64,000 bases of DNA from Enterobacteria phage Kha5h, in the sequence record NC_054905.1. The stretch is one strand, 5' to 3'. Every line of letters starts with the position of its first letter. Position 1 is the first letter of the stretch. The notes below the pieces were generated by a model. It saw nothing but the letters and a program-made list of their open reading frames with translations. It had not been told where the DNA came from and made no database searches. Below are positions 25,421 through 64,000 of this stretch, piece after piece. The position numbers and the translations under genes are program-made.

Positions 25421-25435
25421 TCTTTGACGATTTAA

Positions 25436-25465
25436 GGGACCTTCGGGTCCCTTTAGTTGTTTTTA
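25436..25465 (+). terminator. Rho-independent terminator after gene 23
   Basis: GGGACC TTCG GGTCCC hairpin followed by T-rich tract. Confidence 0.8.
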
Positions 25466-25468
25466 TGG

Positions 25469-25476
25469 TATAAATA
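25469..25476 (+). promoter_or_regulatory. Late promoter TATAAATA for gene 24
   Basis: Exact TATAAATA about 28 nt upstream of the gene 24 ATG. Confidence 0.7.
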
Positions 25477-25503
25477 AATCATATAAACCAAAAGGAAAGC
25501 GCA

Positions 25504-30269: not shown

Positions 30270-30887
30270 ATGTACCACTTTGTATATGAAACAACAAATC
30301 TAATAAATGGTAAAAAGTATATAGGAAAACACTCTACTGATGACTTGAATGATGGTTACCTTGGTTCCGGTAAGGCAATTCAGCAGGCTATAAAGAAATA
30401 TGGTGAAAACAATTTCTCTAGAACAATACTAAAAGAGTTTAAAACTTCCGAAGAAGCGTACATGTATGAAGAAGAAATTATAACTCCTGAACTAATAAAA
30501 AGCAAAAATTATTATAATATGAAACCTGGTGGAATTGGTGGAATTGTTATGACTACAGAGGTTATAGCAAAGATGAAAGAATCTTCCGCTAAAAGATTTG
30601 AAAACTCACCAGGCACGGTATTAGGTAAAACTTGTTACACTAATGGAACTAAAAATATTTTTATTAAACCTGGAGAACTTGTTCCAGAAGGATTTGTAAA
30701 AGGGATGGTTCATCCTAATAGAAAGTCCAGAAAAGGATGTAAAGTCAAACCGACTACCACAGGAACTTTTTGGGTCAATAATGGTGCAATAAATAAATTA
30801 ATACAACCAGACGGTATTATTCCCGACGGATTTATTAAAGGTCGTCTCATGAAAAGAGATTCTAAAGGCAAATTTAGTAAGGCATAA
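30270..30887 (+). mobile_element. segE: SegE-like GIY-YIG homing endonuclease (free-standing)
   Basis: 205 aa; N-terminal GIY-YIG-type motif YHFVYETTNLINGKKYIGKHS; sits between inh and uvsW. Confidence 0.8.
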
Positions 30888-41250: not shown

Positions 41251-41304
41251 TCCTCATGTTATGTCAGTAAGATTACTATAACACAACACGAGGGACTTGT
41301 AAAC
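41251..41304 (-). promoter_or_regulatory. Early promoter plus leader cassette, copy 1
   Basis: Reverse strand GTTTAC, 17-18 nt, TATAGT, then GAGGA RBS; 54-bp element repeated at 56551-56604. Confidence 0.65.
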
Positions 41305-43361
41305 TACATCTTGAACTTTTTAGACATTCCGTTGATGTTAACCAAAGAAGCCAAGATTTGAGAAACTTCGTTTTCCTCTTCTTTTGATTCTTCTACAAGG
41401 AATTGATTAAACCCAGCCATTGGACGAACTTCACCAGTTTCCATTAGATGATCGCCATCATATACCGATTCTTCTAATTGTTCAGAAGGAGGAACGATTG
41501 TGCCTTCGATTAGATACTTGTTATAAGCAGTTTCTTTCATCATGTACGTGCTTACTTTATTAATCTTCAACAAAATTCCACGCGGTAGAATAACTTCAGC
41601 TTCTGATGGAAATCCTGATAAATGACCTGGAACGATAACTTTGATTCGTTCAGCCCCTTTAATTACCATACCTACGCTAGTTTCAGCATCTTCATTAGCA
41701 TATGTAGAATGACTACCCATATGCATCAAATCTTCTGCATCAACGGAACCTTCTCCTTCACCAGAAAATACTGCGCCGGAATCATCTAGAGCCATATAGT
41801 TTTTACCATGCTCACCGAAGATATTTGGTTTAAGCGATGTGGATACGAAGTTCTTGAAATAGAACATTTTATTTTCAATATTATGACGTAAAGTTTTAAA
41901 GGTAACTTCTTGTCCGCGATAAAGCGTAGTTCCTGGAGGAAGAACTGAACCTTTAGCAAATGCAGAATCCAACGTCTCGATGTGCTTAATAGCTCGTTCC
42001 ATATATTCTTCACGGGTAGAATCTGGTTTACCCAAAAGGAACGAGTTCATTTCAACATATGAATCTGCACAATAATCTTCAATTACATCAGATTCAGCTT
42101 GAGTTAATCCTTTTGGAGTTACTTCAGTGCTTGCGTATTCATATGCCTGGGCAGCAGATTCATTAATCAATTTATAAATGCCATTCATTACAAATTGAAT
42201 AATAGCTGTCTTTTCATCTGGCGTAGCTTTAGAACCTTTAACTAAATCATTGATAATTTTCTTAATAACATCAAAGCTATTAGAAATATTAATATCAGCA
42301 AGATCGCTTAAAATTTTATCAGTTTTATAATCAAAGAATTCTTTATTCTTTAAATATTCTTGAGAACCTTGATATGTTATATCGCTCTGCAACTTGATAG
42401 ATGGATCACGTAAACGTGCATGGGCCAATGCAATATGATTTCGGAAGCTTTCTAGTTCATAATCGTTAGATTTAAAACTAGAAGCACTTCTCATACCACC
42501 GATAGCTCCTTTGCCGAAGTTGGAACCAATCTGAATAACGCCAGAGTTCATTGGTCCTTCTGCTTTATATACCGGAACTTTAGATTCAAACTCTTGATAT
42601 TTCTTAGCGGCGAAGCTATCGCCCTGGAGTGAGGCATCGACAGTAGAATATTGAGCTTGCGCTGCTAATCGACGACTAATTTTAGTTTTCTGAATAACAG
42701 CTTGATCCGTGCGCTTATCATTTTCTAAAGCAATAGAAGCAGCAACAGCAACAGCTTTAGGAACAGCATTACCTGTTTTAACATCTACATAAACATCACC
42801 AACCTTTGATTCAACTTTTGTGAATAACTCAGTTGAAATAGGAGGTACACCTGGAATGTCTTCTAAATTGGCATTTTTACGGTAAACCATAATATATGCG
42901 TACTTTTTATCATAGTCCCAGATTTCCTTTAAAAGAACATATCGACCTGCTCCTTTAGTACGTACTAAACGGTCAGCAATAACTTGCATTTGACGAGCTG
43001 CGCCATTTGTTTTACTCTTTAGTACGCGGAATAGGCATGCGTCGATTTTATACTGCTTCATTGTTTGAAGAGCAGTATCAAAAACAGCATTAATGACGCC
43101 AATTGGATTTCCACCCAAGTTTCTAAGCTTAACCAGCGATAATTTCTCGTTGACACCTATCATTACGATATGCATCATTTTATCGCCTGGCTTAACGTTT
43201 TTATTCGTATCACCACCAGAGGTGTATGTACAAAATCTAAATCCAGGAAGCACGCTTTCTTCGCCGGCTTGAATAGCAAAAATTTGTGGTATTTTATGCT
43301 TAGGATTTAAGTTAACAACCGGCGCCGAAGCGCCGTCAAATAATTCTGTAATAAGTTCCAT
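41304..43361 (-). CDS. Alt-family ADP-ribosyltransferase paralog
   Basis: 685 aa; N-terminus MELITELFD closely similar to the adjacent Alt ORF; C-terminal ART motifs YRGQ, FVSTSL, EAEVILPRG. Confidence 0.8.
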   Translation of the reverse strand: MELITELFDGASAPVVNLNPKHKIPQIFAIQAGEESVLPGFRFCTYTSGGDTNKNVKPGDKMMHIVMIGVNEKLSLVKLRNLGGNPIGVINAVFDTALQTMKQYKIDACLFRVLKSKTNGAARQMQVIADRLVRTKGAGRYVLLKEIWDYDKKYAYIMVYRKNANLEDIPGVPPISTELFTKVESKVGDVYVDVKTGNAVPKAVAVAASIALENDKRTDQAVIQKTKISRRLAAQAQYSTVDASLQGDSFAAKKYQEFESKVPVYKAEGPMNSGVIQIGSNFGKGAIGGMRSASSFKSNDYELESFRNHIALAHARLRDPSIKLQSDITYQGSQEYLKNKEFFDYKTDKILSDLADINISNSFDVIKKIINDLVKGSKATPDEKTAIIQFVMNGIYKLINESAAQAYEYASTEVTPKGLTQAESDVIEDYCADSYVEMNSFLLGKPDSTREEYMERAIKHIETLDSAFAKGSVLPPGTTLYRGQEVTFKTLRHNIENKMFYFKNFVSTSLKPNIFGEHGKNYMALDDSGAVFSGEGEGSVDAEDLMHMGSHSTYANEDAETSVGMVIKGAERIKVIVPGHLSGFPSEAEVILPRGILLKINKVSTYMMKETAYNKYLIEGTIVPPSEQLEESVYDGDHLMETGEVRPMAGFNQFLVEESKEEENEVSQILASLVNINGMSKKFKM

Positions 43362-43364
43362 GAT

Positions 43365-45461
43365 TTATCCTTGAACGAACTTGTAAGGCATGTTTGTAAT
43401 ATCTATGCAAGACGCAATAATTCCAAGAGATGATTCGACTTTCTGTTTAACATTTGATGAAACAAATGATGCAAAATCAACTCTGTCTTCTATTTCAATA
43501 TCACCTGTCATTGCAACTACTTCGCCGGTTTCCATTAAACGGTCTCCGTCATAGATTACCGATTCGGTGAGCTCTTCCGTGGTCATAACTTCAGCTTGAA
43601 TGAGTTTTGTATTATTAGATGTTGTTCCGTCATTATTAGAAGCATCAGTTATTTTATTAACTTTGACCATCAATCCACGCGGTAGAATAACTTCAGCTTC
43701 TGTTGCTATTCCGAGACTTCCTGGATATACAACATTAACTTTATGAGCTCCATCAATTGCCCATCCTATTTGAACTTTAACGTATTCAGGATTTTCTTTA
43801 TACGCTCTTATTTCGTTTGGATTAATAGTTATTCCTTCTTCATTTTTATCAACTGTTAATTCATTGCGAGCTTCTGGTTCTAAAAGACCAATACCAGCAT
43901 GTGTAATTCCAAAACGTCCAAAAATGATAGGAGTTAAAGAAGTAGATACAAAATTTCTGAAGTAGAACACTTTATTTTTAACTAACGCTTCATATATAGG
44001 AGCAGTCATACTTTGAGCACGATAAACTGTAATGCCTTCTGGTATACGGTCACCATTTTCAAAAGCTGAATCTAAGTTATTTATAGCAGATTCAATTTCT
44101 TTTTCACTCATTACATCATATCGTTCTGGATTGTAACGACCTAAAAGAAGATTATTGATGTCAGTATATCCTGAACCGCAATATTCTCTAATGCCACGCT
44201 TTTGTGATGGAGTATATTTAGAACCATCGCGGGCAATAGTAATATCAATCATTGGACCAGCACCAATTCCAGAAAAACTGTAAATCATTCGTTTGAGGAA
44301 TTTAGTTTTTGCTGCGTTCCAGAAATTTTTAGTTATTTCTTCCCAGACTTCATCTGGTTGTCCTTTACGATTTTTATTATGATTAGCAAGCCATTTATCT
44401 TTATAATCTTCAAAGAATTGATTTACAGCTGCTGCGTATTTCTCTAAACATTTTATTGAAGTAGTTGGTTCATTTTTAATTGCATTAAAAATTACTTCTT
44501 TAATTTTTTCTGAAACTTCACCGACTTGACTCATTGGAAAGAATTTATAATCATAGTGAAGTTCATCTGCCGTTCCTTCAGCAATAATTTTTGCTGCCTT
44601 TGTTTTAGAAGCTAATGAATTAATTCCAATTTTCATTTCTTCTGCTTCGGGAATTAAAGGTGCAGTAGCTGGTTTATTAAAATTAGCTGCTGTAGATTCA
44701 TACTTCTGGAATAATTCACTTTCAAATCTAGAAGATTCCAATGACTGACTTTGTGCAATTGCTCTACGTGAAATTTTAACTTTAACGATTACAGCTTGGT
44801 CAGAACGTTTATCATTTTCTTGCGCAATAGATGCTGCAATTGCCTCATTTTTAGTTACTTGAGCTCCAGTATCTTTATTGATATAAACATCGCCGACTTT
44901 CGATTCAACTTTAGTAAAGAGCTCGGTACTAATTTCCGGAACTCCTGGAATGTCTTCTAGTGATACATTTTTGCGATGTATAAGAATATATGCATACTTT
45001 TTATCATAATCCCAGAGTTCCTTAAGAAGGACGTATCTGCCACCTGAACGACTACGGATAAGTCTATCAGCAATAACTTGAATTTGTCGAGCTTGACCAG
45101 CGGTTTTAGACTTAAGAATACGGAGCATACAGGCATCAATTTTATACTGACGCATTGTTTGCATTGCAACAGTAAAAACTGAATTGATATAATTAATTGG
45201 GCTTGGACCAAGACCTTTTAATTTAGCAATTGAACCTTTAGCAGTTAATGTAAAAGGAACAATATGCATCATTTTATCGCCCATCTTTAAATCGCGATTA
45301 GTATCACCTCCAGATGTATAGGTACATAAACGAAAGCCTGGCTGTTCAATTGCATCATCAACGTGAACTGAAAAAATTTGCGGTATTTTCTTCTTTGGAT
45401 TTAAGTTTGTAATCGGAAGAGTAGTATCTTCGTCAAATAATTCTGTAATAAGTTCCATCAT
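43365..45461 (-). CDS. alt: Alt ADP-ribosyltransferase (head-packaged), start possibly at second Met
   Basis: 698 aa; ART R-S-E motifs YRAQ, FVSTSL, EAEVILPRG; both an upstream hairpin and TATAAATA on the - strand. Confidence 0.85.
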   Translation of the reverse strand: MMELITELFDEDTTLPITNLNPKKKIPQIFSVHVDDAIEQPGFRLCTYTSGGDTNRDLKMGDKMMHIVPFTLTAKGSIAKLKGLGPSPINYINSVFTVAMQTMRQYKIDACMLRILKSKTAGQARQIQVIADRLIRSRSGGRYVLLKELWDYDKKYAYILIHRKNVSLEDIPGVPEISTELFTKVESKVGDVYINKDTGAQVTKNEAIAASIAQENDKRSDQAVIVKVKISRRAIAQSQSLESSRFESELFQKYESTAANFNKPATAPLIPEAEEMKIGINSLASKTKAAKIIAEGTADELHYDYKFFPMSQVGEVSEKIKEVIFNAIKNEPTTSIKCLEKYAAAVNQFFEDYKDKWLANHNKNRKGQPDEVWEEITKNFWNAAKTKFLKRMIYSFSGIGAGPMIDITIARDGSKYTPSQKRGIREYCGSGYTDINNLLLGRYNPERYDVMSEKEIESAINNLDSAFENGDRIPEGITVYRAQSMTAPIYEALVKNKVFYFRNFVSTSLTPIIFGRFGITHAGIGLLEPEARNELTVDKNEEGITINPNEIRAYKENPEYVKVQIGWAIDGAHKVNVVYPGSLGIATEAEVILPRGLMVKVNKITDASNNDGTTSNNTKLIQAEVMTTEELTESVIYDGDRLMETGEVVAMTGDIEIEDRVDFASFVSSNVKQKVESSLGIIASCIDITNMPYKFVQG

Positions 45462-53760: not shown

Positions 53761-55175
<1,415 letters not shown>

Positions 55176-56607: not shown

Positions 56608-58195
<1,588 letters not shown>

Positions 58196-58204
58196 AATAA
58201 AATG

Positions 58205-58220
58205 GGCCTTGCGGCCCACT
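58205..58220 (-). terminator. GCAA-loop hairpin between nrdB and denA
   Basis: Reverse strand GGGCC GCAA GGCCC followed by ATTTTAT. Confidence 0.5.
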
Positions 58221-58222
58221 CC

Positions 58223-59401
58223 TTAAAAGTATTTTTTAAAACTCATCATAACTTTATCATCAACATCATTATCAATCTGTGCAACAAGATAAGATGACAG
58301 TTCTACTTCTTGTGGCGCGGATTGAACATTATCAGAATTAAGATATTCACGAATCCAAGGATATGGATGTTTAACCGGAGCATCGGTAATTGGGCATGGA
58401 AGACCACACTGTTTCATACGAGATACAGTTAAGTAATCAATAAAGCTCCACATGCTATTTGTATTTAATCCAGGAACATCGCCATCTTTAAATAAATGAA
58501 CTGCCCAATCTTTTTCTTGGCGGTTAACTTCCATGAAAATATCAACTGCTTCTTGTTCACACTCTTGAGCAATTTTAACCCATTGATCACCATCAGTACC
58601 AGATTGAAGTTGACGAATAATATATTGGGTGCCTTTAAGGTGAAGCTGTTCATCGCGTGCAATGAACTTCATAATCTTGGCATTACCTTCCATGATTTCC
58701 ATGTTCTTATGGAAGTTAAAGGTACATGCGAAAGATACATAAAAACGAATAGCTTCCAATGCGTTGATTACATGCAAACAGAGGTAAAGAGATTTCATTA
58801 GCTCACGCTTCCAATATGTCTCATGCTCAATAGCATCTTCAATAACGTCTTCGTCTGCATTAATTTCTTTTTGGTATTCGATATCAGCTTTAGCGTTTTC
58901 CCAATAACGAGTTTTAATCAGAACATCATCATAATAACGTCCAATGGATTCAGCACGTTTCATAATAGCTTCATCTAATACAATTTCATCAAATACCTTC
59001 GATGGATCAGTATAAAGATTTCGCATGATATGAGTATATGAACGACTGTGAATAGTTTCACTAAAAGTCCATGTAGCAACCCATGTATCAAGGCTTGGGT
59101 CTGAAATTAATGACATAAGTACAGCAGATGGCGCGCGACCCTGAATGCTATCTAAAAGTGATTGATACTTCAAGTTGTTAGTAAAAATATTTTGCTGATA
59201 CTGAGGAAGCTTATTAAACTGTGCAGCATCCATCATCAAGTTTACTTCTTCAGGACGCCAGAAAAATGATAATTGCTTTTCGGTTAAATCTTCAAAAACT
59301 TTATGACGTTGAATATCATAACGCGCAATACCAAGACCTGAACCAAAAAACATAGGTTCTTTTAAAACATCAACTGGATTTGTATTAAAAACTGTGCTCA
59401 T
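58223..59401 (-). CDS. nrdB: Ribonucleotide reductase small subunit, uninterrupted
   Basis: 392 aa continuous ORF; di-iron ligand motifs (E..H) present. Confidence 0.9.
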   Translation of the reverse strand: MSTVFNTNPVDVLKEPMFFGSGLGIARYDIQRHKVFEDLTEKQLSFFWRPEEVNLMMDAAQFNKLPQYQQNIFTNNLKYQSLLDSIQGRAPSAVLMSLISDPSLDTWVATWTFSETIHSRSYTHIMRNLYTDPSKVFDEIVLDEAIMKRAESIGRYYDDVLIKTRYWENAKADIEYQKEINADEDVIEDAIEHETYWKRELMKSLYLCLHVINALEAIRFYVSFACTFNFHKNMEIMEGNAKIMKFIARDEQLHLKGTQYIIRQLQSGTDGDQWVKIAQECEQEAVDIFMEVNRQEKDWAVHLFKDGDVPGLNTNSMWSFIDYLTVSRMKQCGLPCPITDAPVKHPYPWIREYLNSDNVQSAPQEVELSSYLVAQIDNDVDDKVMMSFKKYF

Positions 59402-59452
59402 AAATTTTCCGCTTAGTTAATAGTTGGTGACTCGTCCGTGAGTCAAATTATA

Positions 59453-61717
59453 TCATAATTTACAGGATGAACAATCTTCAGCTTTTGGAGTTTCTATTTC
59501 ATAATCATCAGTACCAGAACCATCGCGGGTATTATGATAATAGAAATTTTTTCCGCCAAAATACCAAAAATACAAAAGGTCATCAATCATTATTGACATT
59601 GGAACCTTGCCTTTAGGGAAGATTTGGGGGTCATAGTATGTATTCGCCGAAGCTGATTGACATACCCATTTCAGCATAATAGCTACCTGCGTAAGATAAG
59701 GTTTATTACCTTTCTTAGCTAATTTCCATGTATAATCATAGAGGTCTATGTTATGCTCAATATTGGGCACGACTTGATTAAAGGAGCCCTCTTTTGATTC
59801 TTTAACAGAGACTGGTCCACGTGGAGGCTCGATACCGTTTGTACTGTTAGAAACTTGGGAAGATGACTCACATGGCATAAGTGCTGATAATGTGCTATTA
59901 CGGATGCCAAAGAGCTTAAGGTCTTCCCGCAGCGACGACCAGTCACAAACGTATTTTGGAGCTGCGATTTGGTCAATCTTTTTATTGTACCAGTCGATAG
60001 GTAATTCGCCTCGAGACCAACGAGTGTCTGAATAATATTCGCAAGGTCCTTTTTCTTTGGCGAGCTTAATGGATGCTTTAATGAGTCCATACTGTAATCT
60101 CTCAAATAGTTCATGTGTTAAATCGTTAGCATCTTCATAAGAAGCAAAGTTACTTGCCAGCCAAGCTGCATAGTTAGTAACACCTACACCGAGGTTACGA
60201 CGCTTTTTAGCTTTTTCTGCTTCAGGAACTGGATATCCTTGGTAATCCAAAAGATTATCAAGAGCACGAACTTGGACTTCTGCCAATTCATTAATTTTAT
60301 CTTGGTCTTGCCAGTCAAAATTATCCAGTACGAATGCAGAGAGAGTACACAATCCAATTTCAGCATCAGGACTATTCACATCATTTGTTGGAATAGCAAT
60401 TTCACAGCACAAGTTACTCTGACGAATAGGTGCCTTTTCACGAATAAACGGAGTATAGTTATTCGTATTATCAATGAACTGCACATAAATCCTTGCTGTT
60501 CCTGAACGTTCAGTCATGAGCAATTCAAATAGTTCACGGGCTTTAATACGCTTTTTACGAATATTAGGGTCTTTTTCTGCTGCTTCGTATAATTCACGGA
60601 AACGGTCTTGGTCTTTAAAATAAGAATAATACAGCTCTCCACCCATTTCATGTGGACTGAACAAAGTAATGTAATCGTTCTTTCCGAATCGTTCCATCAT
60701 CAAATCATTCAGCTGAACACCATAATCCATATGACGAATGCGGTTTTCTTCTACACCTTTGTTATTTTTCAAAACGAGAAGATTTTCAACTTCCAAATGC
60801 CAAATAGGATAATAAGCAGTAGCAGCGCCGCCACGAATTCCACCCTGTGAGCATGATTTAACTGCAGTCTGAAAATGTTTCCAAAAAGGAATAACACCAG
60901 TATGGCGTACTTCACCTGTGCCAATCTTAGAACCTTCGGCACGAATCATACCAACGTTAATACCAATTCCAGCGCGTTTGGAGATATATTCAACAATTGA
61001 AGCGGAAGCCTTATTGATAGACTTTAATGAATCACCTGCCTCAATAACAACGCATGAACTAAACTGTCGAGTCGGAGTACGACAGCCAGCCATAATAGGA
61101 GTTGGCAATGAAATCTGTCGAGTAGATACTGCTTCATAAAAACGAATAACGTGTTTTAATCTATCAACAGGTTCATCTTGATGCAATGCCATTCCAATAG
61201 TCATAAATGCAAACTGCGGAGTTTCATAAATTTGACCAGTGGTTTTATCTTTAACGAGATATTTTTCTTTTAATTGCATCGCCCCGGAATAAGTAAATTC
61301 CATATCCCGCTCGTGCTTAATTTTTGATTCTAAAAACGTAATTTCTTCTGCTGAATATTTTGACAGCAGTTCAGGGTCATATTTACCTTCATTTACACAG
61401 TAAGAAATATGGTCAATAAATGAACGTGGTTCATATTGTCCGTAAACATGCTTACGAAGAGCAAACATTAAACAGCGAGCGGCTACGTATTGATAATCAG
61501 GCTCTTCAACTGAAATAGAATTCGCAGCAGCCTTAATTACAATGGTTTGAATGTCATCAGTGGTCATTCCATCACGGAGATATGATTTAATATTTTCATA
61601 TAATTCATAAGGATCTACAGATGTTCCTTCAGCTGCCCAGGATAAAACTTTAATAATTTTTTGCGGGTCAAAGCTCTGAGAAACACCACTACTTTTGATA
61701 ACATTAATTAATTGCAT
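59453..61717 (-). CDS. nrdA: Ribonucleotide reductase large subunit
   Basis: 754 aa; active-site region SNLCCEI; C-terminal Cys pair. Confidence 0.92.
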   Translation of the reverse strand: MQLINVIKSSGVSQSFDPQKIIKVLSWAAEGTSVDPYELYENIKSYLRDGMTTDDIQTIVIKAAANSISVEEPDYQYVAARCLMFALRKHVYGQYEPRSFIDHISYCVNEGKYDPELLSKYSAEEITFLESKIKHERDMEFTYSGAMQLKEKYLVKDKTTGQIYETPQFAFMTIGMALHQDEPVDRLKHVIRFYEAVSTRQISLPTPIMAGCRTPTRQFSSCVVIEAGDSLKSINKASASIVEYISKRAGIGINVGMIRAEGSKIGTGEVRHTGVIPFWKHFQTAVKSCSQGGIRGGAATAYYPIWHLEVENLLVLKNNKGVEENRIRHMDYGVQLNDLMMERFGKNDYITLFSPHEMGGELYYSYFKDQDRFRELYEAAEKDPNIRKKRIKARELFELLMTERSGTARIYVQFIDNTNNYTPFIREKAPIRQSNLCCEIAIPTNDVNSPDAEIGLCTLSAFVLDNFDWQDQDKINELAEVQVRALDNLLDYQGYPVPEAEKAKKRRNLGVGVTNYAAWLASNFASYEDANDLTHELFERLQYGLIKASIKLAKEKGPCEYYSDTRWSRGELPIDWYNKKIDQIAAPKYVCDWSSLREDLKLFGIRNSTLSALMPCESSSQVSNSTNGIEPPRGPVSVKESKEGSFNQVVPNIEHNIDLYDYTWKLAKKGNKPYLTQVAIMLKWVCQSASANTYYDPQIFPKGKVPMSIMIDDLLYFWYFGGKNFYYHNTRDGSGTDDYEIETPKAEDCSSCKL

Positions 61718-62034
61718 AAGTCCTCAACTTGAAAATCGTCTTTAAACAATCGGTTAACTATATGAGCTATTATATCACCATGACACGGCTTTGGTTTACA
61801 TGTGCATCCTAGCCTCATTCCACGTAAAGGCTCTAAATGTGCTTTAGTTATTTCTCCGGATTTAATTCGACGTATAAAATCTTTTTTGAATAATTCAATG
61901 GCAGCCTCCCGGCTGCCAGCATCTTTACCGACGTAATTTCCCCAAAATGTATCACGGTGAATATTAACATCAAAGTCGGATTTATATTTATTCACTACCC
62001 GGCATAGACGGCCCGCGTGGTAATAATTCGTCAT
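61708..62034 (-). CDS. Conserved Cys/His-motif protein (nrdA.1-like)
   Basis: 108 aa; motif [12 protein letters not shown] near C-terminus. Confidence 0.6.
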
Positions 62035-62263
62035 ATTGTTTTTCCGTTAAAACAGTAATATCATAATAACAATCAGAAGAAGTTTTAACTGTAGAAATTT
62101 TATTATCAAAATACTCACGAGTCATTTTATGAGTATAATATTTTTTGCCATAAATGATAATAGGCTGTTCTGGTCCTGGAACTTCTAACTCGCTTGGATT
62201 AGGAAGTGTAAAAAGAACGACACCAGAAGTATCCTTAAATCGTAAAATCATATATCCTCTCAA
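61988..62263 (-). CDS. Hypothetical protein (nrdA.2-like); start uncertain
   Basis: 91 aa ORF overlapping the downstream gene by 47 nt. Confidence 0.5.
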
Positions 62264-62274
62264 TTAAATTAAAA

Positions 62275-63135
62275 TTACACCGCCATCTTTCCTTTCAATA
62301 CACCGTGGGACTGATAATCTTTGAGAACGAAATCCCGTGCTGTCATATATTCAGTTAACCAATACATTTGAGTTTCAGTATCGCATTGACTGAATCCATT
62401 AGGCCAATTAATACTGAGTTTGCATAGATCCATAGGAGTTCTATTTAATATCTCTTTGCATTGCTCAATATGGTTAGAATAAATGTGTGTATTACCACCC
62501 GAGAATACCAAATCGCCCGGAACTAGTTCACACATGTCAGCAACAATATGCAAAAGAGCAGCATAACTCGCGATGTTAAATGGAAGACCGAGGAAAACAT
62601 CTACCGAACGTTGATACCATTGGAGGTCAAGGTATCCGTTACGCACATTAAACTGATAGAACATATGACAAGGAGGTAATGCCATCTGCTTGAGTTCAGC
62701 TGGATTCCATGCCGACACAATTTGACGCCTATCGTTGGGAAATGTTTTAATACGATTAACAACTTCTACAATTTGATCTACACCACCAAAATCACGCCAC
62801 TGTTTTCCGTAAATTGGACCAAGTTCACCGCTATGATAACCTAAGTCTTTGGCCTGGTTTTCGTAGTTTTCATCCCAAATTGTTTTTCCTGCAATTAAAG
62901 ATCCATGAGTACGTTGACGTAAATCATTTACGTTAGTACTTCCTGATAAGAACCACAATAACTCAGAAATACATGCATTCCAGGCGAGCTTCTTAGTCGT
63001 TACTGCAGGAAAACCTTTAGTTAAATCCCAGCGTAATTTAGTACCGAACAAAGCAATTGTTCCTGTGCCTGTTCGGTCATCAGTTTCATAGCCATTTTCA
63101 AAAATGTCTTTAATTAAATCTTGGTATTGTTTCAT
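62275..63135 (-). CDS. td: Thymidylate synthase, uninterrupted
   Basis: 286 aa continuous ORF; catalytic LPPCH motif and DLQWYQRSVD region. Confidence 0.92.
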   Translation of the reverse strand: MKQYQDLIKDIFENGYETDDRTGTGTIALFGTKLRWDLTKGFPAVTTKKLAWNACISELLWFLSGSTNVNDLRQRTHGSLIAGKTIWDENYENQAKDLGYHSGELGPIYGKQWRDFGGVDQIVEVVNRIKTFPNDRRQIVSAWNPAELKQMALPPCHMFYQFNVRNGYLDLQWYQRSVDVFLGLPFNIASYAALLHIVADMCELVPGDLVFSGGNTHIYSNHIEQCKEILNRTPMDLCKLSINWPNGFSQCDTETQMYWLTEYMTARDFVLKDYQSHGVLKGKMAV

Positions 63136-63179
63136 TTAGTACCTTATATAAATTATAATACATTTTATGAAGCTAATAA

Positions 63180-63539
63180 TCAATACGGTTTAGCATCAAA
63201 TTTTCTTTCGATTTCAGGAGTGAAATATAATTCTTTACCACGTTTGGAAAAACGACCAATAATATGATAATTATTCTCATCAAACGTGATATTACCAATA
63301 TCCATAGCTTTCAACCAAATATCGATATTTCTATCTAGTTTTATATCAAAATTCCAATACGGAGAACTATTACCAAAAATACTACAAGCGGATTCAGTGA
63401 AACAACTGCTATAAATCTTGTCTTTAGGAACTACTAATTGATAGACGCCTTTAATAAACTGAGGACCCTGCCATTTTGGTTGTTTCGCGTCTTTTTCTAA
63501 TAGAATAGGGTAATAATTAAAATTCATATTTTCCGCCAC
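63180..63539 (-). CDS. Hypothetical protein between td and frd; start may be the ATG 12 nt inside the track ORF
   Basis: 119 aa track ORF begins at a non-ATG codon; no recognisable motif. Confidence 0.5.
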   Translation of the reverse strand: MAENMNFNYYPILLEKDAKQPKWQGPQFIKGVYQLVVPKDKIYSSCFTESACSIFGNSSPYWNFDIKLDRNIDIWLKAMDIGNITFDENNYHIIGRFSKRGKELYFTPEIERKFDAKPY

Positions 63540-63547
63540 GTGTTATT

Positions 63548-64000
<453 letters not shown>

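Follow-up and report, generated by a model that had tools for sequence, protein, structure and literature searches.

Uninterrupted nrdB and td genes and empty insertion sites in the nucleotide-precursor gene cluster of Enterobacteria phage Kha5h

The nucleotide-precursor gene cluster

The stretch of DNA analyzed here (the window) comprises 64,000 nucleotides of Enterobacteria phage Kha5h (NC_054905.1), and its reading frames were called mechanically from the raw sequence. It carries a nucleotide-precursor gene cluster in the order frd, small ORF, td, nrdA.2, nrdA.1, nrdA, nrdB, denA, which includes the following features:

58223..59401, minus strand: nrdB, class Ia ribonucleotide reductase small subunit, 392 codons, uninterrupted (ORF list and Pfam PF00268)
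59402..59452, minus strand: nrdA-nrdB spacer, 51 bp, empty site
59453..61717, minus strand: nrdA, 754 codons, encoding the large subunit of ribonucleotide reductase (ATP-cone, lgN and lgC domains by Pfam)
61708..62034, minus strand: nrdA.1 homologue (DUF4326), 108 aa (Pfam PF14216, 7e-22), collinear with T4 nrdA.1
61988..62251, minus strand: nrdA.2 homologue (DUF5496), 87 aa from ATG (PF17600, 1.6e-60), collinear with T4 nrdA.2
62275..63135, minus strand: td, thymidylate synthase, 286 codons, uninterrupted, divergent allele (Pfam PF00303)

NrdB matched the Ribonuc_red_sm profile (PF00268, 5.7e-37), which identifies it as a class Ia small chain, and NrdA showed the domains of a class Ia large subunit (ATP-cone, PF03477, 2e-17; all-alpha, PF00317, 2e-20; barrel, PF02867, 3e-135). 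For Td, residues 2-286 covered positions 1-266 of the 266 positions of the Thymidylat_synt profile (PF00303, 3e-95) in one continuous frame. A sequence-only reading of this DNA had described nrdB and td as continuous genes and the nrdA-nrdB gap as about 50 bp without an ORF. Both statements hold, and the gap, measured at 51 bp, is too short for an ORF. Since the frames were read from the raw sequence, an artefact of merged exons is impossible; with ORF lengths equal to those of the T2 genes and the td profile completely covered, it is vanishingly improbable that an intron or a split ORF was overlooked in this way. Two nearby plus-strand ORFs in the list (59221..59355 and 59467..59616) are antisense and lie within genes. 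At its other end, nrdB is adjoined by denA (57785..58219), which encodes a GIY-YIG protein. We rejected denA as a homing endonuclease candidate because it corresponds to T4 endonuclease II and is collinear with T4 denA. Promoter and terminator scans of positions 57700..63700 gave counts equal to the shuffled expectation.

Insertion sites of introns and endonuclease genes

In the T4 reference genome (NC_000866), nrdB and td are two-piece joins (I-TevIII, I-TevI), and mobE and nrdB.1 lie between nrdA and nrdB. The sequence-only reading had described this layout correctly, and the possibility that the T4 genes are themselves uninterrupted at these positions is thus not the case. The corresponding sites of the window, together with two loci outside the cluster, are as follows:

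58725..58726, minus strand: empty intron insertion site of nrdB, the two bases between which T4 has its 598-nt intron
59276..59280, minus strand: nrdB nt 122-126, corresponding to the MobE nick site by comparison with T2
62576..62613, minus strand: equivalent of the I-TevI homing site, roughly 38 bp, with CAACG at 62609..62613 and the empty insertion site between 62587 and 62586
25432..25488, no strand assigned: empty segD site; genes 23 and 24 are separated by 57 bp (785 bp including segD in T4)
30270..30887, plus strand: segE, 205 aa, a free-standing homing endonuclease gene of the GIY-YIG type, intact and flanked by inh and uvsW

When nrdB, the spacer and td were aligned to T4, as had been suggested as a check, the window ran straight through all three sites. 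The T4 spliced-exon junctions of nrdB and td matched the window without any indel, and no inserted base indicative of a group I intron was found at either known site. The BLAST gaps tell the same story, with 2 nt in the window versus 600 in T4 at the nrdB site and 55 nt versus 700 at the junction (mobE/nrdB.1). In the td region the gap measured 286 nt versus 1304, and what fills it in the window is divergent td coding sequence. We judged intron absence by this collinearity rather than by Rfam. The group I model RF00028 gave 0 matches in the window (none with E<=1 in 57700..64000), but it also misses both ORF-containing introns of T4, whose own region gave 0 matches, whereas the td intron of phage L14, which lacks an ORF, is detected with 70 bits. 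Because the model is blind to the ORF-containing T4 introns, its negative result excludes only ORF-less introns.

The nrdB gene shares 93.7% of its nucleotides and 96.7% of its amino acids with the equally long T2 gene, and 92.2% of its amino acids with T4. At the intron site, the window reads TTCGCAT|GTACCT where T4 reads TTTGCGT|GTACCT, and only two mismatches (at -5 and -2) occur within -20..+20. I-TevIII cleaves at positions -14/-16 (PMC1865063). These positions correspond to about 58739..58741 in the window, and the cleavage region is identical to that of T4.

The 51-bp spacer agrees with the T2 spacer at 46 of 51 bases and contains no HNH (mob-type) ORF, as compared with 696 bp in T4 and a 732-bp gene in phage G50. 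A hairpin in the spacer (TGACTC...GAGTCA) had a fold energy not distinct from that of shuffled sequences (z -1.34), and the terminator scan did not detect it. MobE-dependent nicks have been mapped to nt 122-126 of T2 nrdB (PMC2790892). Between nt 91 and 160 the window equals T2 at 68 of 70 bases, while T4 differs at 21 of 70. The nicked bases themselves are identical in the window and T2, and the two exceptions (nt 129 and 132) lie 3 and 6 nt from the nicks. By sequence identity, the 5' region of the window gene would therefore qualify as a T2-type MobE target. Since a G50-type HNH gene stands exactly in place of the spacer in close relatives, the nrdA-nrdB junction is a live insertion site.

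Outside the cluster, the segE ORF matched SegE_GIY-YIG (PF19835, 6.6e-9, above cutoff) and the PHROG 314 family annotated as homing endonuclease (1.3e-43). It sits directly upstream of uvsW, in a block that is about 96% identical to T4 at the nucleotide level and collinear with T4 segE. In the alignment to T4, segD is absent between genes 23 and 24 of the window. The phage thus has fewer and different selfish elements than T4: segE is kept, and the td and nrdB introns, a mobE-type gene and segD are missing. The sequence-only reading had proposed a T4 relative with its own complement of such elements. The complement stands, with three elements absent from the cluster, segE intact and segD gone, but its distinctiveness does not, since the layout is that of T2 and represents the majority state.

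The td allele and interpretation of the empty sites

The td gene belongs to a divergent class. Its product, at 286 aa as long as those of T4 and T2, shares 79.8% of its amino acids with T4 (76% at the nucleotide level) and 80.8% with T2 (76.8%), whereas identity between T4 and T2 reaches 98.3%. From sliding identity it can be seen that the divergent stretch, about nt 150-840, passes through nt 549/550 without a break, and we therefore rejected the idea that it is a scar of homing recombination at the intron site. The I-TevI site was defined according to PMC2988022 and PMC5009752: a recipient allele carries the motif 5'-CNNNG-3', in which C and G are critical, 23/25 nt upstream of the insertion site, and AAC is the preferred triplet (PMC5009752). 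The window td gene has CAACG exactly, at -27..-23 and thus with native spacing, and combined with its uninterrupted insertion site this motif would mark the gene as an I-TevI recipient. Compared with T4, there are 4 mismatches among the 20 bp of the primary binding region (centred on the insertion site) and 10 substitutions in -30..+20. Among the latter, -22 and -19 lie in the spacer that separates the cleavage region from the binding region, and +19 and +20 at the edge of the site. T2 has 7 substitutions in the same interval, three of which (-6, +3, +6) are the same as in the window, and its use as a recipient of T4 elements in published crosses (PMC2790892) would count in favour of homing into such a site. 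The peptide YQRSVDVFLGLPFNIAS encoded across the site is identical in the window and T4, which makes all of these changes synonymous drift.

Among phage-collection records, the nrdA-nrdB junction is empty in 406 of 544 and the nrdB intron site uninterrupted in 596 of 710. Most of the nrdB intron is held by 118 records and the full T4 mobE/nrdB.1 segment by 20. Most of the td intron is present in at least 197 of roughly 520 Tequatrovirus-level td records, and the total of intron-free td genes is a rough range only, the 3' end of td being too divergent for coverage-based counting. The whole 6.3-kb region aligned as one unbroken piece in at least 30 records. Reviews treat T4 as the oddity among its relatives (PMC2988022). 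The best matches differ by sub-region (ACG-C40, AR1, PinkRuby), which indicates a mosaic Tequatrovirus; the closest record to the window is vB_EcoM-S1P5QW (97.2% over 24 kb).

Taken together, these data very probably describe an ordinary empty-site (T2-type) nucleotide-precursor gene cluster of a T-even phage. In such a cluster td and nrdB would be translated directly without RNA splicing, and nrdB would follow nrdA past the 51-bp spacer. The suggestion of the sequence-only reading that the sites are naive targets for homing is plausible. With the three target sequences largely intact, homing would probably follow if this phage and a donor phage infected the same cell. In td, I-TevI would be expected to cleave at the conserved CAACG, 23/25 nt before the insertion site. 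In nrdB, MobE would introduce a nick around nt 122-126, and cleavage by an I-TevIII of the RB3 type would fall 14/16 nt upstream of the intron site. Repair by recombination would bring the element, along with donor markers flanking it, into the recipient genome. Cleavage susceptibility is what we infer from these conserved sites. For td, with its divergent sequence, its 10 substitutions and no intron-bearing record of its allele in the collection, susceptibility to I-TevI is likely but unproven.

The td site may instead be refractory rather than naive, if the substitutions of the divergent allele reduce I-TevI binding or cleavage, so that the gene is intron-free through resistance and not through lack of exposure. 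We consider this unlikely. It would fit the higher number of substitutions than in T2 and the record of the allele class: among the matches listed, none of the 24 full-length records at least 92% identical to the window allele carries a td intron, set against the intron frequency among Tequatrovirus-level td records given above. These 24 records are, however, phylogenetically related and include RefSeq/GenBank duplicates, and are thus not independent samples. The sole intron-bearing variant inspected, phage L14, has an ORF-less 320-nt td intron in a T4-class allele, whose first 549 nt match T4 at 94.7% and the window at 86.7%. Against resistance stand the exact critical C and G and the preferred AAC at native distance (PMC5009752), the synonymous character of the changes, and the general tolerance of I-TevI toward changes in its homing site (PMC2988022). 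That the whole divergent class (about 80% amino acid identity to T4 and T2, about two dozen records, all those listed intron-free) is refractory via synonymous I-TevI site changes appears quite unlikely. If it were so, the class would constitute a naturally occurring resistance haplotype in the arms race of phages with their homing endonucleases.

It is likewise quite improbable that the sites are secondarily empty, the introns and/or a mobE-type gene having once been present and then lost by recombination with empty alleles. Such a history would be in line with the cycle of gain, degeneration and loss discussed for homing endonucleases (PMC2988022) and with the patchwork character of the region. 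Differences from T2 cluster immediately before the nrdB insertion site, at nt 481-625, and G50 is T4-like at positions -38, -35 and -32 of this site, where the window is T2-like. However, neither an intron nor an endonuclease gene has left any remnant, the exons join without a seam, and the spacer closely matches that of T2. Moreover, the td divergence neither starts nor stops at the insertion site.

The intron-free and mobE-free state, as in the empty-site reading that we prefer, is already known from T2 and most sequenced T4 relatives. That T-even phages differ in whether they carry the td and nrdB introns and mobE has been on record since the late 1980s, and the classic T2 x T4 experiments on homing and marker exclusion are built on this variability. 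The main value of our result is correct annotation, with little beyond. The phage joins the many Tequatroviruses with few homing endonucleases, and the result marks which sites would convert in co-infection with T4-like donors. In addition, the drift that I-TevI tolerates could be gauged with the window td allele as a naturally occurring variant substrate.

Comparison with T4, G50, U5 and T2

T4 shares gene order and orientation with the window, and also segE. Its flanks show about 96% identity, and its NrdA is 98.4% identical at the amino acid level. In addition, T4 has introns in td (1017 nt, with I-TevI) and nrdB (598 nt, with a defective I-TevIII), mobE plus nrdB.1 (696 bp) and segD. Unlike in the window, T4 frd and td overlap without an intervening ORF, and T4 nrdB has 388 codons instead of 392.

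Phages vB_EcoM_G50 (NC_054917), bov9_1 and bov10K1 are 97.5% identical over the region. Their td and nrdB genes are uninterrupted as in the window, and G50 has the td allele of the window (99.4%). In contrast to the window, the G50-type junction carries, in place of the 51-bp spacer, a gene for a 243-aa HNH+NUMOD1 endonuclease, the first 105 aa of which are 62% identical to T4 MobE; codon 2 of G50 nrdB is recoded. The nrd region is a hotspot for endonuclease insertion (PMC2988022, PMC2790892), and T4 mobE and hef of phage U5 have nrdB as their common target (PMC2988022). According to this review, U5 hef shares its hotspot with the window, which itself has nothing inserted there.

The layout of T2 (AP018813) is that of the window: an uninterrupted 861-bp td gene, nrdA.2, nrdA.1, a 2265-bp nrdA gene, a 51-bp spacer, an uninterrupted 1179-bp nrdB gene and denA, with a 348-bp ORF between frd and td, as in the window architecture. 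NrdA and NrdB of T2 are 99.3% and 96.7% identical to the window proteins. The window differs from T2 in its td allele, at nt 129 and 132 near the MobE nick and in its set of I-TevI site substitutions. In crosses with T4, T2 has been the recipient, and it was in T2 that MobE nicking and trans-homing of the nrdB intron were mapped (PMC2790892).

Gene organization and continuity of nrdB and td

The final 6 kb of the window contain the nrd-td cluster, whose components are arranged as follows:

57785..58219 (minus strand): denA
58223..59401 (minus strand): nrdB, 392 codons; full-length match to Pfam Ribonuc_red_sm (5.7e-37)
59402..59452: nrdA-nrdB spacer, 51 bp
59453..61717 (minus strand): nrdA, 754 codons; full-length, Pfam ATP-cone, lgN and lgC (up to 3e-135)
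61708..62034 (minus strand): nrdA.1
61988..62251 (minus strand): nrdA.2
62275..63135 (minus strand): td, 286 codons; Pfam Thymidylat_synt (3e-95), profile positions 1-266 of 266
63180..63527 (minus strand): 115-aa ORF between frd and td
extending beyond the window end (minus strand): frd, 3' two-thirds only

The coordinates and lengths assigned by the sequence-only reading proved exact. This reading had also described nrdB and td as uninterrupted and the nrdA-nrdB gap as about 50 bp long. When the spliced T4 exon junctions were aligned with the window, zero inserted bases were found and the gene lengths exactly equal those of T2. Both genes are continuous, and the gap, which measures 51 bp, lacks mobE/nrdB.1. 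Intron absence rests on this collinearity rather than on Rfam. An Rfam scan of the window found no group I intron, and a search of 57700..64000 at E<=1 yielded nothing relevant. In control searches, RF00028 detected the td intron of phage L14 (L007), which is 320 nt long and lacks an ORF, with 70 bits, but at the gathering threshold it found nothing in T4's own region (L001, 133000-147000). Since it misses both T4 introns, which carry endonuclease ORFs, the negative Rfam result excludes ORF-less introns only, and the T4/L14 control pair indicates that a negative scan is not proof of intron absence.

Candidate homing sites and the divergent td allele

I-TevI recognizes about 38 bp. Its binding region is a 20-bp stretch with the insertion site in the middle, and cleavage occurs 23/25 nt upstream at 5'-CNNNG-3', in which C and G are critical and for which CAACG is the native motif (PMC2988022; PMC5009752). 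In the window, CAACG is exactly present at positions -27 to -23 of the td site (62609..62613). The site differs from that of T4 at positions -22, -19, -6, -4, +3, +6, +12, +15, +19 and +20 (T2 differs from T4 at -22, -7, -6, -4, +3, +6 and +18), but the peptide encoded across it, YQRSVDVFLGLPFNIAS, is the same as in T4, so that the substitutions are synonymous. At the nrdB intron site, the window matches the T4 intron-minus sequence at 38 of 40 positions (-20 to +20; mismatches: -5, -2), with no change at the cleavage positions. For MobE, mapping in T2 nrdB placed the nicks at nt 122-126 (PMC2790892). Over nt 91-160, the window nrdB is identical with T2 save for nt 129 and 132, and T4, the mobE donor, differs at 21 of the 70 positions. 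Judged from these comparisons, the three sites (td/I-TevI, nrdB intron site, nrdB/MobE) look like plausible recipients, and we infer that they may be naive targets for homing, as had been proposed initially. Elsewhere in nrdB, differences from T2 cluster at nt 481-625 (58777..58921, minus strand), and T4 nrdB is four codons shorter.

The sole feature of the cluster that is not T2-like is td. Its amino acid identity is 79.8% to T4 and 80.8% to T2, while T4 and T2 share 98.3%. The divergence spans approximately nt 150-840 with a minimum of 43-57% nucleotide identity at nt 691-837, and T4/T2-like sequence returns about 25 nt ahead of the stop codon. About 24 full-length records among the matches listed have this allele (at least 92% identity), and td is uninterrupted in all of them, which might suggest that such a td is refractory to I-TevI. 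However, the critical CAACG motif is intact, I-TevI is known as a tolerant enzyme and the intron-free records are close relatives, so that we consider refractoriness improbable. A homing scar was rejected as origin of the divergent block because it is not tied to the site of intron insertion.

Occupied and empty sites in related phages

Phages G50 (vB_EcoM_G50, NC_054917), bov9_1 and bov10K1 are 97.5% identical to the window over the region (td allele, 99.4%), but carry a 243-aa ORF exactly in place of the 51-bp spacer. Its product has HNH and NUMOD1 domains, matches PHROG 655 ('homing endonuclease') and shares 62% identity with T4 MobE across the first 105 residues. In the G50 region (L003:2202-2933), the ORF directly adjoins the stop of nrdA and overlaps with the start of nrdB. 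These relatives directly support an interpretation of the window's spacer as an unoccupied endonuclease site. The MobE nick-site sequence of G50 nrdB is almost identical to that of the mobE-free window, whereas that of T4 is heavily substituted; in G50 nrdB, nt 630-645 also contain a series of third-position differences.

The full 6.3-kb region aligned as a single unbroken piece in more than 30 records among the matches listed. In the phage collection, the nrdA-nrdB junction was contiguous in 406 of 544 matching records and the nrdB insertion site in 596 of 710. At least 80% of the intron length was present in 197 records for td and in 118 for nrdB; 20 records contained the complete T4 mobE/nrdB.1 segment, and about 120 others matched mobE in part. 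These proportions are rough, since the collection includes RefSeq/GenBank duplicates and many laboratory strains of T4, but an uninterrupted state clearly predominates.

Comparison with T4 and T2

The T4 (NC_000866) counterpart of the window extends from gene 6 to frd (81106..145552; about 96-97% identity in the alignment). The T4 interruptions had been described correctly: NC_000866 gives nrdB and td as joins of two pieces that contain I-TevIII and I-TevI, and places mobE plus nrdB.1 between nrdA and nrdB. From this record, we derived a 598-nt nrdB intron (junction ...TTTGCGT/GTACCT...), a 1017-nt td intron (...CTTGGGT/CTACCG...) and a 696-bp mobE/nrdB.1 segment. The window lacks the nrdB intron (alignment gap, 600 nt in T4 vs 2 nt in the window), mobE/nrdB.1 (700 vs 55 nt), the td intron and segD (genes 23 and 24 are 785 bp apart in T4, 57 bp in the window). 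The segE-like gene noticed before (30270..30887) is an intact 205-aa ORF directly upstream of uvsW that matches Pfam SegE_GIY-YIG and PHROG 314. Thus, the window has only one of the five T4 selfish elements of the matching stretch, and the suspected difference in their complement was borne out. In the 57-bp gene 23-24 spacer (25432..25488), a GC-rich hairpin (GGGACCTTCGGGTCCC) with T's behind it resembles a terminator.

Three window segments have no T4 counterpart: an extra alt paralogue, 313 bp between pseT and pseT.1, and 401 bp between frd and td, which overlap in T4. Two full-length alt (ADP-ribosyltransferase) genes lie in tandem (41304..43361 and 43365..45461, minus strand; 685 and 698 aa), whereas T4 has a single alt plus the short duplication remnants alt.-1/alt.-2; two alt genes are also annotated in several relatives. 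The 313-bp segment contains a 106-aa ORF (54855..55175, minus strand; PHROG 2364, unknown function) and the 401-bp segment the 115-aa ORF (PHROG 1928, unknown function); neither matched in Pfam. The 115-aa ORF also occurs in T2, G50 and T-01, and the entire 401-bp segment is matched by 361 phage records.

The T2 layout (AP018813) equals that of the window gene for gene: nrdB of 1179 bp, a 51-bp spacer (46 of 51 bases identical), nrdA of 2265 bp, small ORFs of 327 and 264 bp, td of 861 bp and a 348-bp ORF before frd. The literature agrees that the uninterrupted state is the usual one; the nrd region has been called an insertion hotspot for endonucleases, and T2 has been described as lacking mobE and the nrdB intron (PMC2790892). 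The sequence-only reading was confirmed in what it observed and essentially right in its interpretation, but the intron-free arrangement is the already known, well-documented T-even default and no distinguishing trait.
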